NCBI GenBank assembly: GCA_000182565.2
Contig: KQ257451.1
Length of the DNA: 64,000 bases
Source of the DNA: Spizellomyces punctatus DAOM BR117
Lineage: Eukaryota
Strand: one strand, 5' to 3'
In this document: piece by piece, positions 2 to 10,893 of the stretch
Layout: each line of letters begins with the position of its first letter
Numbering within the stretch: position 1 is the stretch's first letter
Program-made: the position numbers and the translations under genes
The notes under the pieces: generated by a model
What the model was told of the DNA's origin: nothing
The model's input: only the letters and a program-made list of their open reading frames with translations
The model's database searches: none

Positions 2-3000
2 GATCATCTTTTACACTTCGCTATTCAACAAAGAGCTGGTTTGTCACAGGTGGCTAGTCACTATGGGCCCCTATCTGCCATGGCAACGCAGATCGCAGAA
101 GTGTACGGTACTGGAGAAGCAGAATCGGAAAATGTTGCTCTAGTTCCTGGATGGAAGATCGTCAAGATGCTCAGAGAGCAAAAAGATGCTATAGACGAAG
201 CAATGGCGGTAGTTATTCAGGGAGTGATTCTTGCTGATGCGTATGTTCGCTCGAAACAAGAAGGCATCGAAGTTAGAAGAGCACTTGAAGCTGTCCGCGC
301 TAAAATGTCCTCATTGAAAAAGGACGTTGACGATCGATATGCGTTGCACGCTGCTAGCACTGTACCTGCTGTTGCAGTTGAGTCTGCCGTTCGCATGATG
401 TTCAGCAATGCTGCTGCCTTATCGGAAATGGAGCGGCATGTGAAGGATCTCAATGGCATGCACCCGGACGTCTCCTACATTTTGGACGACCTGGCTGATG
501 TTTTGCGGGAAAAGGTGGCGATTGTCAATTCGGCTGTTACTGAGATGTTTGGTGAAAACGAAGCTAGCGGAGACGAACTTGACAATGCGGCTGTGGAAGA
601 GTTCACTGCTAGGGTGGATGATGCTATCACAGCTATGCTTCTGTCCTTCCAGGCACTCATGAGCATCGATGAAACCGCTGCGCCGAACGGTACAACGAAC
701 GGGGTGTGCGACGATGAAGATGATGCGTTTGGCTTACGAAAGCGCTACCTTATCGATGCACACCAAAGAACTGTTAACCTCTTCCGTTCCGGACATCTTG
801 GGAACGTCCTGGAAGCGTTCAATAGTCTGCTCTCCGGTGTCCACATGGACACGCAATCGATTCAAAGTCGCAGATACTTTGCAAGCTTGGTACGCAGGAT
901 TTATCCGTTATTCAACCAGTATCTTCTTGCCGTCCGCAGAAGTTTGCTAGATTGCATCTTGCAACATAAGTCGATGTTAAAGTTCGCGTACATATTGTGT
1001 AACACATTCGGGCAACTGTACAAAGATGGCTTCTGTGTGCCGCGCGATGAAAAAGACGACGGGGCAGATGATGATACCACAATGGAAGACAATGTAGCTG
1101 GCACAGGAATTGGCGAAGGCGAAGGCAACAAGGACGTTAGCGACGAAATCGAAAATGAAGACCAAGTGGAAGGCATGCAAAACGAAGCGCCAGCCAAACC
1201 GGATCCACAAAAGAAGATCGATGATGAAGAAAACGGTATTGAGATGGATACAGACTTTGACGGAAAGTTGGAGGATGTTGATGCGGAGGACGAAGAGGAA
1301 GACGATGCTCGTGATAATGAAGAAGAGAGCGAAGAGCCAGAAGAGCAAATGGGAGATGTAGATGGTAATGCTAATGTAGTAGACGAGAAACTTTGGGGAG
1401 ATGATGATAAAGACGAAGATGTGAACGGCCAAGATGAGAAGACAGAGAGAGATGCACCTGCGCAAGATGGCGGTGGGGAAACCGAGATGGCGGCCAAGGA
1501 AGGTGGAGGAAATGATGAAGAAGAGTCATCAGACCGCCAAGAGCGTGAAGACAATCAGCGACAAGAGGCTCAGCAAAACGTGGAACCTCAGAATGCCAAC
1601 GAAGACGGCGAGGAAGACAGCAACGAGGATATCATCAATGAAGATAATGAAGCGAAATACGAGGATAGTCATGGCATAGACCCGAAGGCTGCTGATGAAA
1701 AGGAGCAACAGGAGCAAGAGGAAGAGGATGACATGGAGCTACCAGATGATATGGATATGGACGCTAATGAACAAGAGGAGGACGACAGAGATGGAGGTCG
1801 TGATCAAAGTGCAGATAGAATGGATCTTAATAGCAGTGAAGACATGAATCATGGCAATGAGGAGTCGCTAGAGGAAGAAAAAGATGAAGAAACTAATAAT
1901 GTTGAGGAAGAGAAGCAACCTGACGAAGCGGCAGCTGAGGAAGCTCAGCAAGAGGGGTCAGAAACTTTGGAACCGGAAGCGCTGGCCGAACAGGAGGAAC
2001 AAAATACCGAACAAGGACCTGAGGTGGAAGTCGAAAAGAATAATATCCAGGAAAATCGGGAAAGCGCACATGAGGAGCAAGAACCAGAGAAGCCAGATAG
2101 CGAACAATCTCCGGAAGATGCAACTCAAGCAGTAGACGATCAGATTCAAAGCAGCACCCAACCATATGGCGTCAAAGGAGCTTCTGGTGAAAAATCTGCG
2201 TTAAACGTTCAGCCGGATGAGATGTCCGAGGAAATCCCGGAAGACGGAGAAAATGGCAGTGCTAATGAAGATTTCACTCCAGGCGCTGAGAAAAGTCAGC
2301 GTCGTTCGCAACACTCGAGGAATGAAGGAAGAGACAAGTCGAGGAAAGACGAAAACATGGATCCAAATCCAAGGAGGAGCCTGGGCGATGCGCTGAAGAA
2401 ATGGATGTCGCGGCTGAAGAATATTTCAGAGTCCACAGAAGAAGAAAAAACTAACCGGGAGGAGTTCAACGATGAGCCGCTTTTGGATGGAGACAAGGCT
2501 CTTGAATATGAATTTGTTAAAGAAGATGATGAAGCAGCCGATGCACAAGCCATGGCAGACGCAACTGCGGATCAATTTGAAGAGATGGACAGAAAAGCCT
2601 TGGCTGACGATAAAGAAGAAAAAGAGTGTGGAACTGATGACGCCATGGATGTTGAGGAACATCAGGAAGATGTACCTGACGAACAAGGGACTACGTCGCG
2701 GGAACCAGATGCACAGAAGAAAGGGAGGTCAGAAAACCCGAGCGGGGCAATCGACTTGGGACTCAATGAAAAAGACGGCAAGGAGGTGGAGAACAAAGTC
2801 AGGAACGACGAGGAGGATGTCGGTGGTGTGGATACCATGGATGTCGATGAAGAGGAGGTGGATGATATCGAATGGACTCGTCCTCGTGCATTGAATGAGG
2901 GCGATACTCTAGCTGATGATGAGGCCGACGAGAGCACTCTTATGGACAGCCATCAGTACGATGAATTGCGTCTGGAGTTGGAACAGTCAGTCGCCGCCTG

Positions 3001-3889
3001 GCGTGAAAGCGGTCAAGATCCGCGTGAAGCAGAAGAGTTGTGGCGCAACTACACAGCGTTAACCAGAGACTTGTCCTTTGCTCTGTGTGAGCAACTTCGG
3101 CTTATTCTGGAGCCAACTCTTGCCACCAAGCTCAAGGGTGATTACAGAACCGGAAAGCGGTTGAATATGCGGAAAATCATCCCCTACATTGCAAGTCAGT
3201 TCAAAAAGGACAAGATCTGGCTACGACGCACAAAACCATCAAAACGCACATATCAGATTATGATTGCTATTGACGATTCGCGGTCAATGGCCGAGTCGCG
3301 ATCTGTACAGCTTGCATACGAGTCACTCGCCGTGATCACCAAAGCATTGACACAGCTGGAGGCTGGAGACGTCTCAGTCTTAAGTTTCGGCGAGGATGTC
3401 AAGCTCCTGCACCCTTTCGATCGCCCGTTCTCGGATGATGCGGGCGCGGATGTCATCCGGCGTTTTACGTTCAAGCAAGATCGAACCCATGTGCGTAAAA
3501 TGATGGAAACAGCGATGGGGATATTGGATCATGCACGTACTCAGAGTGGGGCGGGTCCCGGATCTGATCTATGGCAACTGCAGCTTGTGATTTCAGATGG
3601 TATCTGCGAGGACCATGAGCTCGTACAGGCCTTGGTACGCAAGGCTGCTGAGCAGCGAATCATGGTTGTTTTTATTGTGCTGGATAATCGGAGGGAGAAG
3701 GACTCGATCACAAAAATGACAAACGTAACATACGGTGTAGACCTTTCAACGGGGCGCCCGACTCTACAAATGAGTCGGTATATGGATACCTTCCCGTTTG
3801 ATTACTATGTGGTCGTCAAGGATATCGGAACCCTACCGGAAGTATTAGCGGATACGCTACGGCAATACTTCATGTTTGTAAATGCATAA
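2..3889 (+). CDS. MDN1: Midasin (Rea1) AAA-ATPase, C-terminal part: linker, D/E-rich region and MIDAS/VWA domain; 5' end lies outside the window
   Basis: Frame is open from base 2. Contains GTGIGEGEGNKDVSDEIENEDQ, a long acidic tract, LCEQLRLILEPTLATKLKGDYRTGKRLNMRKIIPYIASQFKKDKIWLRRTKPSKR and the MIDAS DxSxS motif (IDDSRS). Confidence 0.97.
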   Translation, partial: DHLLHFAIQQRAGLSQVASHYGPLSAMATQIAEVYGTGEAESENVALVPGWKIVKMLREQKDAIDEAMAVVIQGVILADAYVRSKQEGIEVRRALEAVRAKMSSLKKDVDDRYALHAASTVPAVAVESAVRMMFSNAAALSEMERHVKDLNGMHPDVSYILDDLADVLREKVAIVNSAVTEMFGENEASGDELDNAAVEEFTARVDDAITAMLLSFQALMSIDETAAPNGTTNGVCDDEDDAFGLRKRYLIDAHQRTVNLFRSGHLGNVLEAFNSLLSGVHMDTQSIQSRRYFASLVRRIYPLFNQYLLAVRRSLLDCILQHKSMLKFAYILCNTFGQLYKDGFCVPRDEKDDGADDDTTMEDNVAGTGIGEGEGNKDVSDEIENEDQVEGMQNEAPAKPDPQKKIDDEENGIEMDTDFDGKLEDVDAEDEEEDDARDNEEESEEPEEQMGDVDGNANVVDEKLWGDDDKDEDVNGQDEKTERDAPAQDGGGETEMAAKEGGGNDEEESSDRQEREDNQRQEAQQNVEPQNANEDGEEDSNEDIINEDNEAKYEDSHGIDPKAADEKEQQEQEEEDDMELPDDMDMDANEQEEDDRDGGRDQSADRMDLNSSEDMNHGNEESLEEEKDEETNNVEEEKQPDEAAAEEAQQEGSETLEPEALAEQEEQNTEQGPEVEVEKNNIQENRESAHEEQEPEKPDSEQSPEDATQAVDDQIQSSTQPYGVKGASGEKSALNVQPDEMSEEIPEDGENGSANEDFTPGAEKSQRRSQHSRNEGRDKSRKDENMDPNPRRSLGDALKKWMSRLKNISESTEEEKTNREEFNDEPLLDGDKALEYEFVKEDDEAADAQAMADATADQFEEMDRKALADDKEEKECGTDDAMDVEEHQEDVPDEQGTTSREPDAQKKGRSENPSGAIDLGLNEKDGKEVENKVRNDEEDVGGVDTMDVDEEEVDDIEWTRPRALNEGDTLADDEADESTLMDSHQYDELRLELEQSVAAWRESGQDPREAEELWRNYTALTRDLSFALCEQLRLILEPTLATKLKGDYRTGKRLNMRKIIPYIASQFKKDKIWLRRTKPSKRTYQIMIAIDDSRSMAESRSVQLAYESLAVITKALTQLEAGDVSVLSFGEDVKLLHPFDRPFSDDAGADVIRRFTFKQDRTHVRKMMETAMGILDHARTQSGAGPGSDLWQLQLVISDGICEDHELVQALVRKAAEQRIMVVFIVLDNRREKDSITKMTNVTYGVDLSTGRPTLQMSRYMDTFPFDYYVVVKDIGTLPEVLADTLRQYFMFVNA

Positions 3890-6769: not shown

Positions 6770-7926
6770 CCTCTGCAACTGGTGGCTACTGGATCGTCAA
6801 GTAGTGGGGAAGGGGAGTCCAGGGTTTATTAAGTCAGAGGGCTTTATAGAGCTATCGACAGTCTGCTCTGACGAGACCCAAGGACAATGCCATGGATCTG
6901 GTGATCAGCTCTAGACAGGGTCTTACTGTCAAGCTTACAAACCACACATTCGGCCACCAAAATAGCACTCATAAACCATTATCAACGCGTTCAAACGACA
7001 TCATTGAAGAGGCGCTAGGGGGGAACATTAGACCTTTATCCTATCAACGCAACGATTAACCAGCCTCATTAACAATGGGTTAGTGAGAGCCGGTAACGAA
7101 TTACGTCTGAAGAACATTTGAGGGTGTGTGGGACATGGCTCATGCAAGGGTTCTGCAATCGGACATTTACCTAGACCTTTCAAGGATGTTCTCTCCACTT
7201 AGACTTGAAGAACGTGATGATTCCACGCAAATAACAACAAGACACATCGAAAGGAGTCATCACCTTTAAGGGAACTGTTGACCCTTACACCAAGCGGGTA
7301 TAGGCATGGAATAGTAAGCCTGCCATCAACCTGGTCCAAGGACTCGCTTTACATAGAGGCCCTGCTACTTATTTCCTCATATACGTTGGTTAATCGGCAT
7401 GAAATAATGAGCTGTCATTAAACTGGGCCGACGACTAGCAGTAGAGGAGAGCTTACTACTTCATTTTTTTTAAAAGAATTTATTGAACGGAAGCAACATG
7501 TCCCTCGTGGGCTGTGGCCGATACTAGGAAAGTTCCAAGCGCCTCTATCGCCCGCCTACCCATCAGATCACGTAATCAGCCGCCCTCAGTGAATATCATC
7601 AAGACCTGTTCCGCCTTCCGTAAATTATAGTGAGCTTCCGAGTTGAGGGTCCCAGATAGCGTTCCATGTGGAGGTCATGGGCTGCCATATTGGAGCATTA
7701 CATTATTGACTTGGAACGAGCCAACAGTATTGCCATAAGGTCTTTGTCATGATACGACACTTCAACTAACTTTGCATTTGATGTGCTTTTATTGGGATAT
7801 GCACGTGTTTTCCCAGATGAAGTAGAGGACTCCCAACGATCAGCACTCTTAAGCTATATTATATTGCAATTGGTAAGCTTGGTGCTGTCTAGTATCGGTC
7901 CATACACCACGAATTAAAATAAACTA

Positions 7927-10002
7927 TTACAGCTGCCCAGATCGAACGATCGAAACCTTTCGAGTCGTCCGCCCGGAAGGTGTTCCATATGTCTCCATCC
8001 TTTGCATGACGCTAAACCCATCCACGACTCGCCCAAAGACAACATGCTTACCATCCAACCAAGGAGTAGGTACTGTGCAGATGAAAAACTGGGATCCGTT
8101 CGTTCCTGGCCCAGCAGTAGCCATGGAGAGAGTTCCCTCTCCAGAATGCTTTAGGTTAAAGTTCTCATCGTCAAATTTCCCCCCGTAAATAGATATTCCT
8201 CCGCTGCCATCGCCTCGTGTAATATCACCGCCTTGGCACATAAATTTTGGGATGATGCGATGGAAGATCGAGTTTGCGTACCCAAAACCTTTCTCCCCCG
8301 TGCAGAGGGCACGGAAGTTTTCAACTGTTTTAGGAACAACGTCGGCACGGAGCTGCGAGGGGGGATGCGGTGCATTAGCGAGATGTTGCTTATTTCATGC
8401 GAAAAATTTGCTACCTCCATAATAATACGACCAATAGTGTCGTTATCCACGGCGATATCAAAGAATACTCTCGGGTTTTGTCGTTGACGGGATGGAAGTG
8501 GAGGTAACCTTGGATTTGATATGTTCTCCAACAGGATTATTCGCTCCTCTGCTTCTACTGCTCGCTTCACTGCCTTGTCTGTTTTCTCTTTCTCTAGGGC
8601 AAGAGCTTTGAGCAAATCAGTAATCTTTTGTTCTGCTTCCTCTGCTCGCTTCTCTGCAGCTAGTAATTGCGCACGTGAAGGTATATTTCGATCCTTATGT
8701 ATCAACTGTCAATTAGGGTAGACGAGAGATAACCAAGCGCTAGCATTCAACCTTCAGTTGACTTTTAAACAACTCTTCTTGTTCATCCTTCTTTCGATCT
8801 CTGGCAAGTAAATCAGAGGGTTATACTGAAATTCAGGTACAGCCATGTGTTCAAACCTACTGTAAATATGAACAAAAGGCCGTGAAACATTTGTCCTGGT
8901 GCCTACGTTTCTCTTTCTCTTCCCCATTCGAAGGAAATTTATAATCTTCTCTTGCAAATTCTAGTTTAGCTACCGGACATCCGAGTTGCTCCCAGGTAAA
9001 CAGATCGATTTCTTTGGGTTTCCAAAGTTGACGAAGAAAATCTTCAACTTTGTTTGTCTGAAAGCGCTTGTCGCGGGGGTTCAGTATCCAATAGAAATTA
9101 TCTGTTTTTTGCTTGTTTGCATTCCATTGTAGAACTAGCAGAGAGTAGCAAATATTGGCTTTGGGGAGAGATCAAAGGTAAACGAATACTGGATAAGATA
9201 CTTTTACCTTGACCATTGCACTGCTCCTGTTCATTGGATCCAATGTGCTGCTCGAACTCCTTATGTGCTTTCAACCGTCCCCCGCGGCTTCGCGGGAATA
9301 TGTGATCCACCTCGAACGTGCATTGTCCGGAATTTGTCAAGATGCTGATAACGTTTCCAGATCGATCGATGCCAAATAGCTCCTGGAGCGCTTCTCTGAC
9401 GGGTTCTCCTAAACCTTCCCATATGGCTCTTATTTCAGAATCCAAGTGTACAGCGCATGTGCACTTTGCGTGGTCCCCATCGTCGGGGGATTTCAAGAAG
9501 CGCTCACGGGCTTCCCATAAATACCGGTTGCCAGCATTGCCAAGGTTATCCGGGTTGGTGGTATTCAGTACTAGTTGGAGGGTATTCCCTATATCTATTA
9601 CGCCGCCCTTGAAATTCGTCTTTATCCACTCATCGATTTTTGGATATTTCTTCTGCCAGTATTTATCGAGGGAGTTGAATAAAACTTCACGCTTTTCCTG
9701 CGGAACCACAAAATCTCCTTGCTTGTTCGTTGTAATGTAACTTAGGTCATCAAGCAGTGCACGTATGGCTTTTCCAACGAATGATTCCTTGCTGATGATA
9801 CCAGACGTGGAATCGATGGAGAACTCATTCTCCCAGTCGGAAGGGAAATTGCGCCCTTCTCGCCAGCCGAACTGTTAACTTGCATATCAGTTCGGATGTA
9901 AGACCTGGACATTTGGTACATTGATGAACTAACCGTCTTCTTAATCAGTTGGATTTCGTCATCGTCGGTTTCCCCGGCTCCTGATCGAGTAGTCACTGGC
10001 AT
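7927..10002 (-). CDS. HNH endonuclease, coiled coil and cyclophilin (PPIase) fusion protein, about 598 aa, 6 exons: 10002-9934, 9871-9208, 9158-8861, 8800-8752, 8705-8415, 8352-7927
   Basis: Five GT-AG introns of 46-62 nt give a stop-free 1797-nt CDS. HNH-like motif IDRSGNVI...[15 protein letters not shown]...[11 protein letters not shown]; heptad region [26 protein letters not shown]; cyclophilin NPRVFFDI...[14 protein letters not shown]...NGSQFFI...[10 protein letters not shown]. Confidence 0.8.
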
Positions 10003-10893
10003 TATAATCTCCAGTTGTTACTCGCCACAGACCTTCTATGTCCACAAAAATATGATATGAGTGAAACGCTCATTGGGTTCGGGCGAATTTATACAGGAAG
10101 CATTGAATGCCAAGCGCCTCATGATACTGAAGGTTGAGCCTTCCCCATTGAGATGGGGTCTGCAGGGATTAATGAATATCAGTATGCAGCTTTGAATTGT
10201 TGAGAGCAGTAAATATTGTCCACTCTGAATTCTGAACAGGAGCAAAACCAGTTGTTGACAGCATGATTTGTTAGCATCTCCATTCCTATATCAGACTCAG
10301 AATCTTTCTCAGTTTGTAGCGAGTGAACAGAAGGCTCGGGAACAGAGACTGCGGATTATTTTGCCCGAGCAGTCTAGCGACTTCTTTGGCGTATAAGTTA
10401 GTTTTTGAGATGACACTTATGGCACCTCAATCTCAGTCGATGTAGCTGTTGGCACCCTTTGACATCCATTCTTTTAACAATTGCTCATCGCATTTCACCA
10501 GTACGGCCGAGCCGGAAACAACGACGGTCAACTAGCCGCTGAAGACGAAAGATTACCCGCCTCGTTTCAAACGAATTGGGTGATTGACGGATACGCCATG
10601 AGCCATTGCACGAGTGTCGCAAAACACGCGGCGCGCCTTGGATGCGAACACGTTGGGCACTTGAACGCCTTTGAAGGTCAAGTTGGACAGTCTTGTCCTT
10701 TTTGCTGAGCCCCGCTTACCGTGCTTGGCACCATTTAATTGACACTTTCTGGATCGGGATCCCTTATTTGCACCCGCATGCGGTGCTGTAACTTACGGTA
10801 TATGTTGCGCAATGTGCGCTGGCGGGGGAGACAGTTACCCTTTGGCTTTGGCGGGTGATTCCATCATCGAACAATTGCGCTCAAAGCCCGAGT

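Follow-up and report, generated by a model that had tools for sequence, protein, structure and literature searches.

The stretch analysed here, 64,000 nucleotides (nt) of contig KQ257451.1 of Spizellomyces punctatus DAOM BR117 (referred to below as the window), carries on its minus strand a six-exon gene that runs from an ATG at 10002 to a stop codon ending at 7927. The predicted product consists of an N-terminal region, an HNH-like motif, a linker, a coiled coil and a C-terminal cyclophilin domain, and this is the domain order given in an earlier note on the same DNA, which had been made from the sequence alone and had proposed a fusion of an HNH nuclease to a cyclophilin. The locus corresponds to the public prediction SPPG_01415 (P0001), a protein of 586 amino acids (aa) that is 100% identical to the translation of exon 2; it is labelled 'peptidylprolyl isomerase' in one source, and its sole precomputed Pfam domain is PF00160. 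Residue numbers used throughout are those of this 586-aa public model. The features of the gene, in the order of its transcription, are as follows; P0004 is a predicted protein from a second species of the genus, described further below.

9934-10002, minus strand: exon 1, Met1 to Thr23, with the start codon at 10002-10000; conserved in P0004.
9208-9871, minus strand: exon 2, which codes for residues 24-244 and contributes the first base of codon 245; lineage-specific N-terminal region, the motif H-x2-C-x-C-x2-H and the first half of the HNH-like motif.
9135-9207, minus strand: intron 2 of the public model, 73 nt, GT..AG; needed for an exact P0001.
8861-9134, minus strand: exon 3, residues 245-345; second half of the HNH-like motif and the middle region; no Pfam family in its translation.
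8801-8860, minus strand: intron 3, 60 nt, GT..AG; its retention leads to a TAG directly after ...SYLQ.
8752-8800, minus strand: exon 4, a 49-nt micro-exon of 16 residues with no in-frame ATG; both junctions are conserved in the P0004 protein.
8694-8751, minus strand: intron 4 of the public model, 58 nt, GT..AG; in the earlier note the acceptor was 8706 and the length 46 nt.
8415-8693, minus strand: exon 5, most of the coiled coil, the LPPLPS linker and the first cyclophilin strands (from N425, 8477).
8353-8414, minus strand: intron 5, 62 nt, GT..AG; inside the cyclophilin domain.
7927-8352, minus strand: exon 6, the remaining cyclophilin and the stop codon (7929-7927); PF00160, 4.2e-41.

Five introns had been proposed in the earlier note, all on the minus strand and all GT..AG: 9933-9872, 9207-9159, 8860-8801, 8751-8706 and 8414-8353 (62, 49, 60, 46 and 62 nt, respectively). 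Splicing in this manner yields 1797 nt, equivalent to 598 codons and a stop, with no internal stop codon; a TAA lies in frame 18 nt upstream of the ATG at 10002. The same six exons yield the public protein without a single difference once two acceptors are moved, intron 2 becoming 9207-9135 and intron 4 8751-8694. These acceptors lie 24 and 12 nt further on and remove 8 and 4 residues, respectively, and either variant stays open in frame. The public acceptors (9135 and 8694) are probably to be preferred to 9159 and 8706, because the second half of the HNH-like motif then stands at its canonical spacing and because P0004 is without the extra residues; in particular, the LIHK added by the intron-4 acceptor of the first model has no counterpart there. 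The stop-free frame of 598 codons and three of the five introns thus stand as they were first written, while the acceptors of introns 2 and 4 are probably wrong in that model. Two DNA contigs (X1 and X2) are unspliced genomic sequence with 0 differences from the window; they are not independent, since they possibly derive from the source sample itself.

The six exons are likely to form one fused coding sequence (CDS), as is indicated by the lack of an alternative start, by a shared exon and by a collinear predicted orthologue. Met1 is the only in-frame Met before residue 444, which itself lies already inside the cyclophilin barrel, and the claim that the cyclophilin has no ATG of its own therefore holds in a stronger form than it was made. 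The ATGs of exon 4, intron 3 and intron 4 are all out of frame and reach stops. In exon 5, a single open stretch, the coiled coil and the proline-rich linker lead straight into the first strands of the cyclophilin; since this exon joins the coiled coil to these strands, the cyclophilin needs the upstream part in order to be made. Protein conservation between P0001 and P0004 also continues across the exon 3/4 and 4/5 junctions. On these grounds the fusion into one CDS, as proposed earlier, has become very probable. Retention of intron 3 would yield a shorter, 345-aa protein ending in ...SYLQ, with neither the coiled coil nor the cyclophilin.

The C-terminal 162 residues are certainly a cyclophilin domain, and on this point the earlier description is fully confirmed: once intron 5 is removed, the match to PF00160 extends over profile positions 2-157 of 159 and scores 149.3 bits, the cut-off being 21.7. 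A comparison with solved structures gave 165 matches at E<=1, the best 60 of which all fall on residues 350-586; a PPIE chain (2ck1_A, 2e-73) ranks first among the solved relatives, ahead of a PPIF chain and of PPIA chains. The twelve catalytic and cyclosporin-binding residues of human CypA were read from an ungapped alignment to a PPIA chain with an offset of 422. Eleven of the twelve are kept (R55, F60, M61, Q63, A101, A103, Q111, F113, W121, L122 and H126), and the remaining one, N102, is replaced by a Thr (Thr524) in both species; the other site residues are likewise kept in P0004. The domain is of the CypA/PPIE type, its catalytic and cyclosporin-binding site is nearly complete, and it is very probably active. 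It resembles PPIA, PPIF and PPIE in having a full cyclophilin domain, in its best solved relatives and in its site residues; it differs from them in the change of N102 to Thr and in the 424 residues that stand in front of it, which are without RRM, U-box, WD40, TPR or RanBP2 parts.

As had been proposed, a coiled coil precedes the cyclophilin, and this is supported both by the helices of an AlphaFold2 model and by a homodimer model. In the model of the 586-aa protein, long helices at residues 317-353 and 359-410 are the only part above a predicted local distance difference test (pLDDT) value of 60, with means over 10-residue blocks of 62-75 at residues 361-410. The homodimer model of residues 335-422 scored 0.64, compared to 0.00 for the best of three controls; at least 98% of the contacts were shared between runs, with a partner pLDDT of 84 or more. 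Among proteins whose solved form is a pair of one chain, 21 of 30 attained this mark, as against none of 23 known as single chains; in eukaryotes the figures were 17 of 29 for pairs and none of 30 for single chains. The contacts lie at residues 347-411 (8769-8517, starting in exon 4) and recur with a 3-4 spacing. Because equivalent residues face each other (379-379, 386-386), the predicted dimer is parallel. A coiled coil of approximately 65 residues is thus predicted to pair two chains in parallel. Directly before the cyclophilin stands a proline-rich linker, (R)LPPLPS, conserved in both species (8510-8490; LPPLPS corresponds to residues 415-420, 8507-8490). This motif may serve the cyclophilin as an internal ligand, or some other proline-recognition domain may dock on it.

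The HNH-like motif lies in two parts on either side of a splice junction. The consensus of HNH domains is D-H-I-x-P-x-S-x-G-G, followed by N-x3-L-x4-N-x2-K; it comprises a catalytic His after an Asp on the hairpin, a structural Asn and, at a set distance, an Asn or His that binds metal. Its first half is represented here by 10 residues at 9307-9278 (minus strand) within the invariant block EVDHIFP(R/K)SRGG, and the 15 residues C207-G221 are the best conserved stretch of the N-terminal half, almost invariant in three sequences. After a loop of 20 residues follows the second half, N242-x3-L246-x4-N251-x2-K254 (9217-9106, across intron 2), which is kept in both species and attains the canonical spacing only with the public acceptor at 9135. 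The D212-H213 block is found also in a 96-aa fragment (P0002), and D212, H213, N242, L246, N251 and K254 are all conserved in P0004. Pfam HNH_5 was matched with E=0.001 (19.4 bits) by exon 2, 0.0046 by P0001 and 0.023 by P0002; at E<=1 the only Pfam families seen were Pro_isomerase and, weakly, HNH_5, SVIP and DUF3037. Among the Atlas neighbours that are listed with a name, most are HNH, HNH_4, GH-E and GmrSD_C/DUF1524, together with ICEA; with scores of 0.81-0.86, below 0.9, these are to be regarded as leads only. The possibility that the loop from GG to N242 conceals an intron was rejected: each of the three relatives has a similar, open loop, and removal of the 55-nt candidate would break the frame.

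Many HNH cores are flanked by zinc-knuckle cysteines. Around the motif described here there are no CxxC pairs, and the equivalent positions are occupied by Q247 and A250. About 50 residues before the HNH hairpin, a motif H-x2-C-x-C-x2-H (HA[KS]CTCAVH, residues 157-165, 9472-9446 on the minus strand) is present in both species; it is possible that it forms a zinc site standing in for the missing CxxC pairs. The N-terminal approximately 185 residues are mostly helical and belong to no known family, and neither do the approximately 90 residues of the middle region that follows the HNH-like motif. Against solved structures, the exon-2 profile gave a single, non-significant match, of its positions 37-96 (ca. 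9730-9760, N-terminal region) to the C-terminal part of the CD-NTase chain 7ljo_A (E=0.75, 12.6 bits), which was taken as chance. A His-Me finger domain is probably present, and the balance tips somewhat towards its being an active nuclease.

The likeness of this part to HNH and other His-Me nucleases (HNH, HNH_5, HNH_4, McrA, DUF1524/GmrSD_C) consists of the hairpin motif, the N-x3-L-x4-N-x2-K element, the half match to HNH_5 and the alignment of the block, without significance, to the catalytic hairpin of McrA in hhalign. The long insertion between the HNH halves is typical of the DUF1524 type, and DUF1524/GmrSD_C clusters are among the Atlas leads. The differences are that the present sequence remains below every curated threshold, has no flanking CxxC and is encoded by an intron-split eukaryotic gene; no bacterial or phage relative of it was found by sequence among the representative proteins, the metagenome contigs and the phages (tblastn). 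Membership in the HNH family is thus apparent at the level of the motif and not at that of the profile.

The relatives of the N-terminal part are few. When exon 2 was compared to 1.84 billion representative proteins of any length, three matches at E<=0.001 were obtained: P0001 itself, the fragment P0002, which is 41-51% identical (51% over query residues 150-202), and P0003, a bacterial protein of 1661 aa matched in nine stretches, which was dropped as a repeat-protein artefact. Two of 2313 candidates scored as relatives among proteins of 322-1026 aa; among shorter proteins there was none in 423 candidates (30-321 aa) and none in a second search with one candidate, and of 51 and 103 pattern matches in JGI metagenome contigs none was confirmed. 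Within the searched sets, the N-terminal part is restricted to two Spizellomyces proteins and one fragment. The second of these proteins, P0004 from Spizellomyces sp. 'palustris', is a predicted protein of 588 aa that is collinear with P0001 from its Met1 through to the C-terminus, with an overall identity of 77%. The identity is 76% in the N-terminal region, 75% in the HNH stretch, 63% in the middle region, 62% in the coiled coil and 93% in the cyclophilin. No paralogue of the gene is present in the 64-kb window.

Transcription was examined in one raw-read run of the same species (X7), of which about 6 in 100 reads were read; 569 reads were placed, 433 of them at a likeness of at least 99%. 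The first mate appears to have the sense of the RNA in this library, and coverage appears to be biased to 3' ends. Sense reads (first mate on the minus strand) reach a depth of 10.6 and 13.5 over 7804-8071 and of 2.0 over 8072-8205, and do not exceed 0.86 upstream. As these reads are confined to the 3' end, the run neither supports nor refutes the fusion. Nine to ten of the reads match only the 33 bases 8039-8071 (coding for WLDGKHVV), with an A>T change at 8062 and mismatching sequence to either side. Their likely origin is a strongly expressed cyclophilin paralogue at another locus of the genome, from which they would have been cross-mapped.

A stronger signal was observed in the opposite direction (first mate on the plus strand), with a depth of 14-40 over 8206-8875 and 4.6-7.4 over 8876-9143. 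One listed joint connects 8834 to 8963, with GT..AG on the plus strand. Loose read ends before 8742 and 8756 match plus-strand 8667-8678, which is unique in the window, and therefore indicate plus-strand introns at 8681-8743 and 8681-8757. The antisense introns, GT..AG on the plus strand, are thus 8681-8743 or 8681-8757, and 8837-8964. Beyond 8891, six reads continue into poly(A), although no run of A is encoded there. From these data we infer a spliced, polyadenylated antisense RNA that overlaps exons 3-6:

8206-9143, plus strand: antisense spliced polyadenylated RNA, indicated by depth, one listed joint, loose read ends and poly(A).

No open reading frame (ORF) longer than 75 codons was found in this RNA. 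Its depth of up to 40 compares to 10-13 at the sense 3' end. The positions of its introns correspond roughly to those of sense introns 4 and 3, and polyadenylation occurs at a point that is, on the sense strand, 31 nt upstream of the intron-3 donor at 8860. The antisense RNA might influence the choice between the full-length and the intron-3-retained product (345 aa).

Taken together, these results make it fairly probable that the gene encodes a lineage-restricted dimeric protein, in which an HNH-type end acts on nucleic acid and a paired cyclophilin end serves for docking or regulation. The N-terminal half would bind or cut nucleic acid via a divergent HNH-type site, while the parallel coiled coil of the model would hold two cyclophilin domains together. 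The two cyclophilins would constitute a proline-directed docking or regulatory module; by docking on a proline-containing partner, or on the protein's own LPPLPS linker, they may target or gate the enzyme. The process served could be either defence or ordinary DNA or RNA metabolism. What the data show directly is the open spliced frame, the cyclophilin, the absence of a further start codon, the collinear predicted orthologue and the rarity of the N-terminal part; the dimer comes from modelling.

Several observations weigh against this reading. The match to HNH_5 amounts to 17.3-19.4 bits compared to a cut-off of 27.5 and covers only half of the domain (profile positions 11-31 of 56); of the HNH domain claimed in the earlier note, the motif is thus present and a profile match above threshold is not. 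NCBIfam, PADLOC and PHROGs contain no match to this part, protein and three-sequence profile searches revealed no relative of solved structure, and tblastn against phages gave no match. In hhalign, residues 195-222 were placed on the catalytic hairpin of E. coli McrA with a probability of 1.2%, and in the alignment to HK97 gp74 an irrelevant stretch was aligned. The AlphaFold2 models, each built on three-sequence alignments, have a mean pLDDT of 37.1 (586 aa) and 45.1 (exon 2), with the HNH stretch below 35 in both, and the loop from GG to N242 is about three times as long as usual. As for the gene model, the 49 nt of exon 4 are its weakest link, and the orthologue is support and not proof, since both proteins are predictions and the second was possibly guided by the first. 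In run X7, the depth is 0 on both strands over 9278-10081 (exon 1 and most of exon 2), except for 0.77 in 9546-9679; none of the five sense introns was seen as a joint, and the antisense reads run unspliced through sense introns 3-5. Finally, the coiled coil may owe its score to generic coiled coils that the model had memorised.

One alternative is that the locus gives rise to two products, an HNH-like protein of 345 aa ending at the TAG after SYLQ and a coiled coil-cyclophilin that is separate or untranslated, the fused model being an artefact of gene prediction through the 49-nt micro-exon. The immediate stop upon retention of intron 3 and the small size of exon 4 agree with this, junctions 8861/8800 and 8752/8693 have no supporting RNA read, and it is just this joint that is overlapped by the antisense RNA polyadenylated after 8891. 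We nevertheless consider it unlikely: a separate coiled coil-cyclophilin would have no in-frame ATG before residue 444, the frame remains open across exons 3-5, where the protein of the second species is 62-63% conserved, and the cyclophilin, being intact and 93% conserved, is under selection and must be translated from somewhere. A second alternative retains the fusion and sees in the HNH-like block a relic, or a structure capable of binding only, in a multidomain cyclophilin that would act as a dimeric scaffold or chaperone, like the nuclear multidomain cyclophilins. It is consistent with the failure of every HNH profile test to reach threshold, with the zinc-knuckle cysteines missing at Q247 and A250, with the long loop insertion and with the identity of the best solved cyclophilin relative, a chain of the spliceosomal PPIE. 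It is rendered rather doubtful by the catalytic-type residues D212, H213, N242, N251 and the N-x3-L-x4-N-x2-K spacing, all kept in both species, and by the DH block, which is the best conserved of the N-terminal half even in P0002, at 41-51% identity; in addition, Pfam revealed no RRM, U-box, WD40 or TPR.

The remaining alternatives concern the process in which such a protein would act. In the earlier note it was presented as a TRIMCyp-like immune sensor-effector, whose cyclophilin would sense a foreign proline-containing protein (capsid, Gag or parasite effector) and whose HNH part would be activated by clustering through the coiled coil. The order of an enzymatic N-terminal module, a pairing coiled coil and a C-terminal CypA-type domain parallels that of the primate restriction factor TRIM5-CypA as outlined in PMC2279257. 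Also in line with such a role are the lineage restriction (one relative cluster and one fragment for exon 2 in the 1.84 billion representatives), the faster divergence of the non-cyclophilin parts (62-76%) compared to the cyclophilin, and the retention of W121 and the binding site. In place of the RING and B-box of TRIM5-CypA, however, neither of which was found here (Pfam, E<=1), there is an HNH-like module, and the protein is not a TRIM protein. PADLOC returned no family for either P0001 or P0004 (E<=1). The gene is single copy in the window, and in the protein searches neither paralogues with other C-terminal 'sensors' nor other fusion partners for this HNH appeared. Between the two species the cyclophilin (93% identity) has changed least, so that the presumed sensor gives no hint of an arms race. 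The coiled coil of TRIM5 is antiparallel, whereas the one modelled here is parallel. TRIMCyp contains an inserted CypA cDNA; the cyclophilin part of the present gene is not a retrotransposed cDNA, since it carries intron 5 (8414-8353), and its first strands share an exon with the coiled coil, which argues against an origin by retrotransposition. The neighbours look like ordinary genes, and we know of no chytrid virus target. A TRIMCyp-like defence role is therefore not borne out and appears quite unlikely; it would be an analogy of domain order only. Highly improbable, in our view, is its more elaborate form, a fungal counterpart of TRIMCyp that evolved independently, in which the two cyclophilins of a parallel dimer would grasp the repeating proline loops of a capsid or Gag lattice, an HNH nuclease would replace the ubiquitin ligase, LPPLPS would hold the cyclophilin shut until displaced by a ligand, and the antisense RNA would set the dose of the full-length protein.

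A different role again would be that of a 'Rosetta stone' fusion, joining a nuclease to a cyclophilin cofactor for bulk DNA breakdown in cell death or in zoospore or sporangium turnover. In favour of this possibility are the role of AIF-CypA in the breakdown of chromatin, the fact that EndoG belongs to the His-Me finger nucleases, and the closeness of the cyclophilin to PPIE and CypA. A cyclophilin works with a His-Me finger type nuclease in animal cell death, as in C. elegans. CYP-13, which is homologous to cyclophilins, CPS-6 (the EndoG orthologue) and the cell-death nucleases CRN-1 to CRN-5 are entered as FEN1-related partners in the table of a review (PMC3035468). These partners are separate proteins conserved across animals, whereas here a single polypeptide is confined to one genus, and cell-death machinery would be expected to be distributed more widely. 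Moreover, the HNH-like part is unrelated to EndoG in sequence, there was no match to Pfam Endonuclease_NS, and there is no direct evidence for such a function; we regard it as very unlikely.

The reading that we favour, a dimeric protein with an HNH-type end and paired cyclophilins, describes a multidomain cyclophilin with a new partner, in a protein already public as a hypothetical protein. No description of an HNH-cyclophilin architecture was found in the full-text literature (main texts only, judged by titles and the starts of abstracts), in agreement with what the earlier note had stated, and the locus tag SPPG_01415 does not occur in these main texts. Cyclophilins are joined to many partners, and the literature examined describes none that follows a nuclease-like domain and a coiled coil for dimerisation. 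An active HNH part would mean that prolyl recognition is tied directly to nucleic-acid cleavage, which would bear on how cyclophilins assist nucleases in cell death, and on whether the 'effector - coiled coil - cyclophilin' design of TRIMCyp arose outside animals. As S. punctatus is a soil chytrid fungus that can be transformed, the question is testable.

Two further observations concern the surroundings of the gene. On the plus strand, an ORF at 2-3889 runs off the start of the window; it has a very acidic middle, and its C-terminal part, read by eye, resembles the VWA end of midasin (MDN1), which suggests an ordinary housekeeping neighbourhood. Downstream of the gene, five RNA molecules end at 7632 (minus strand), ca. 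295 nt past the stop codon, and this position may be the distal 3' end of the gene or that of a neighbour.

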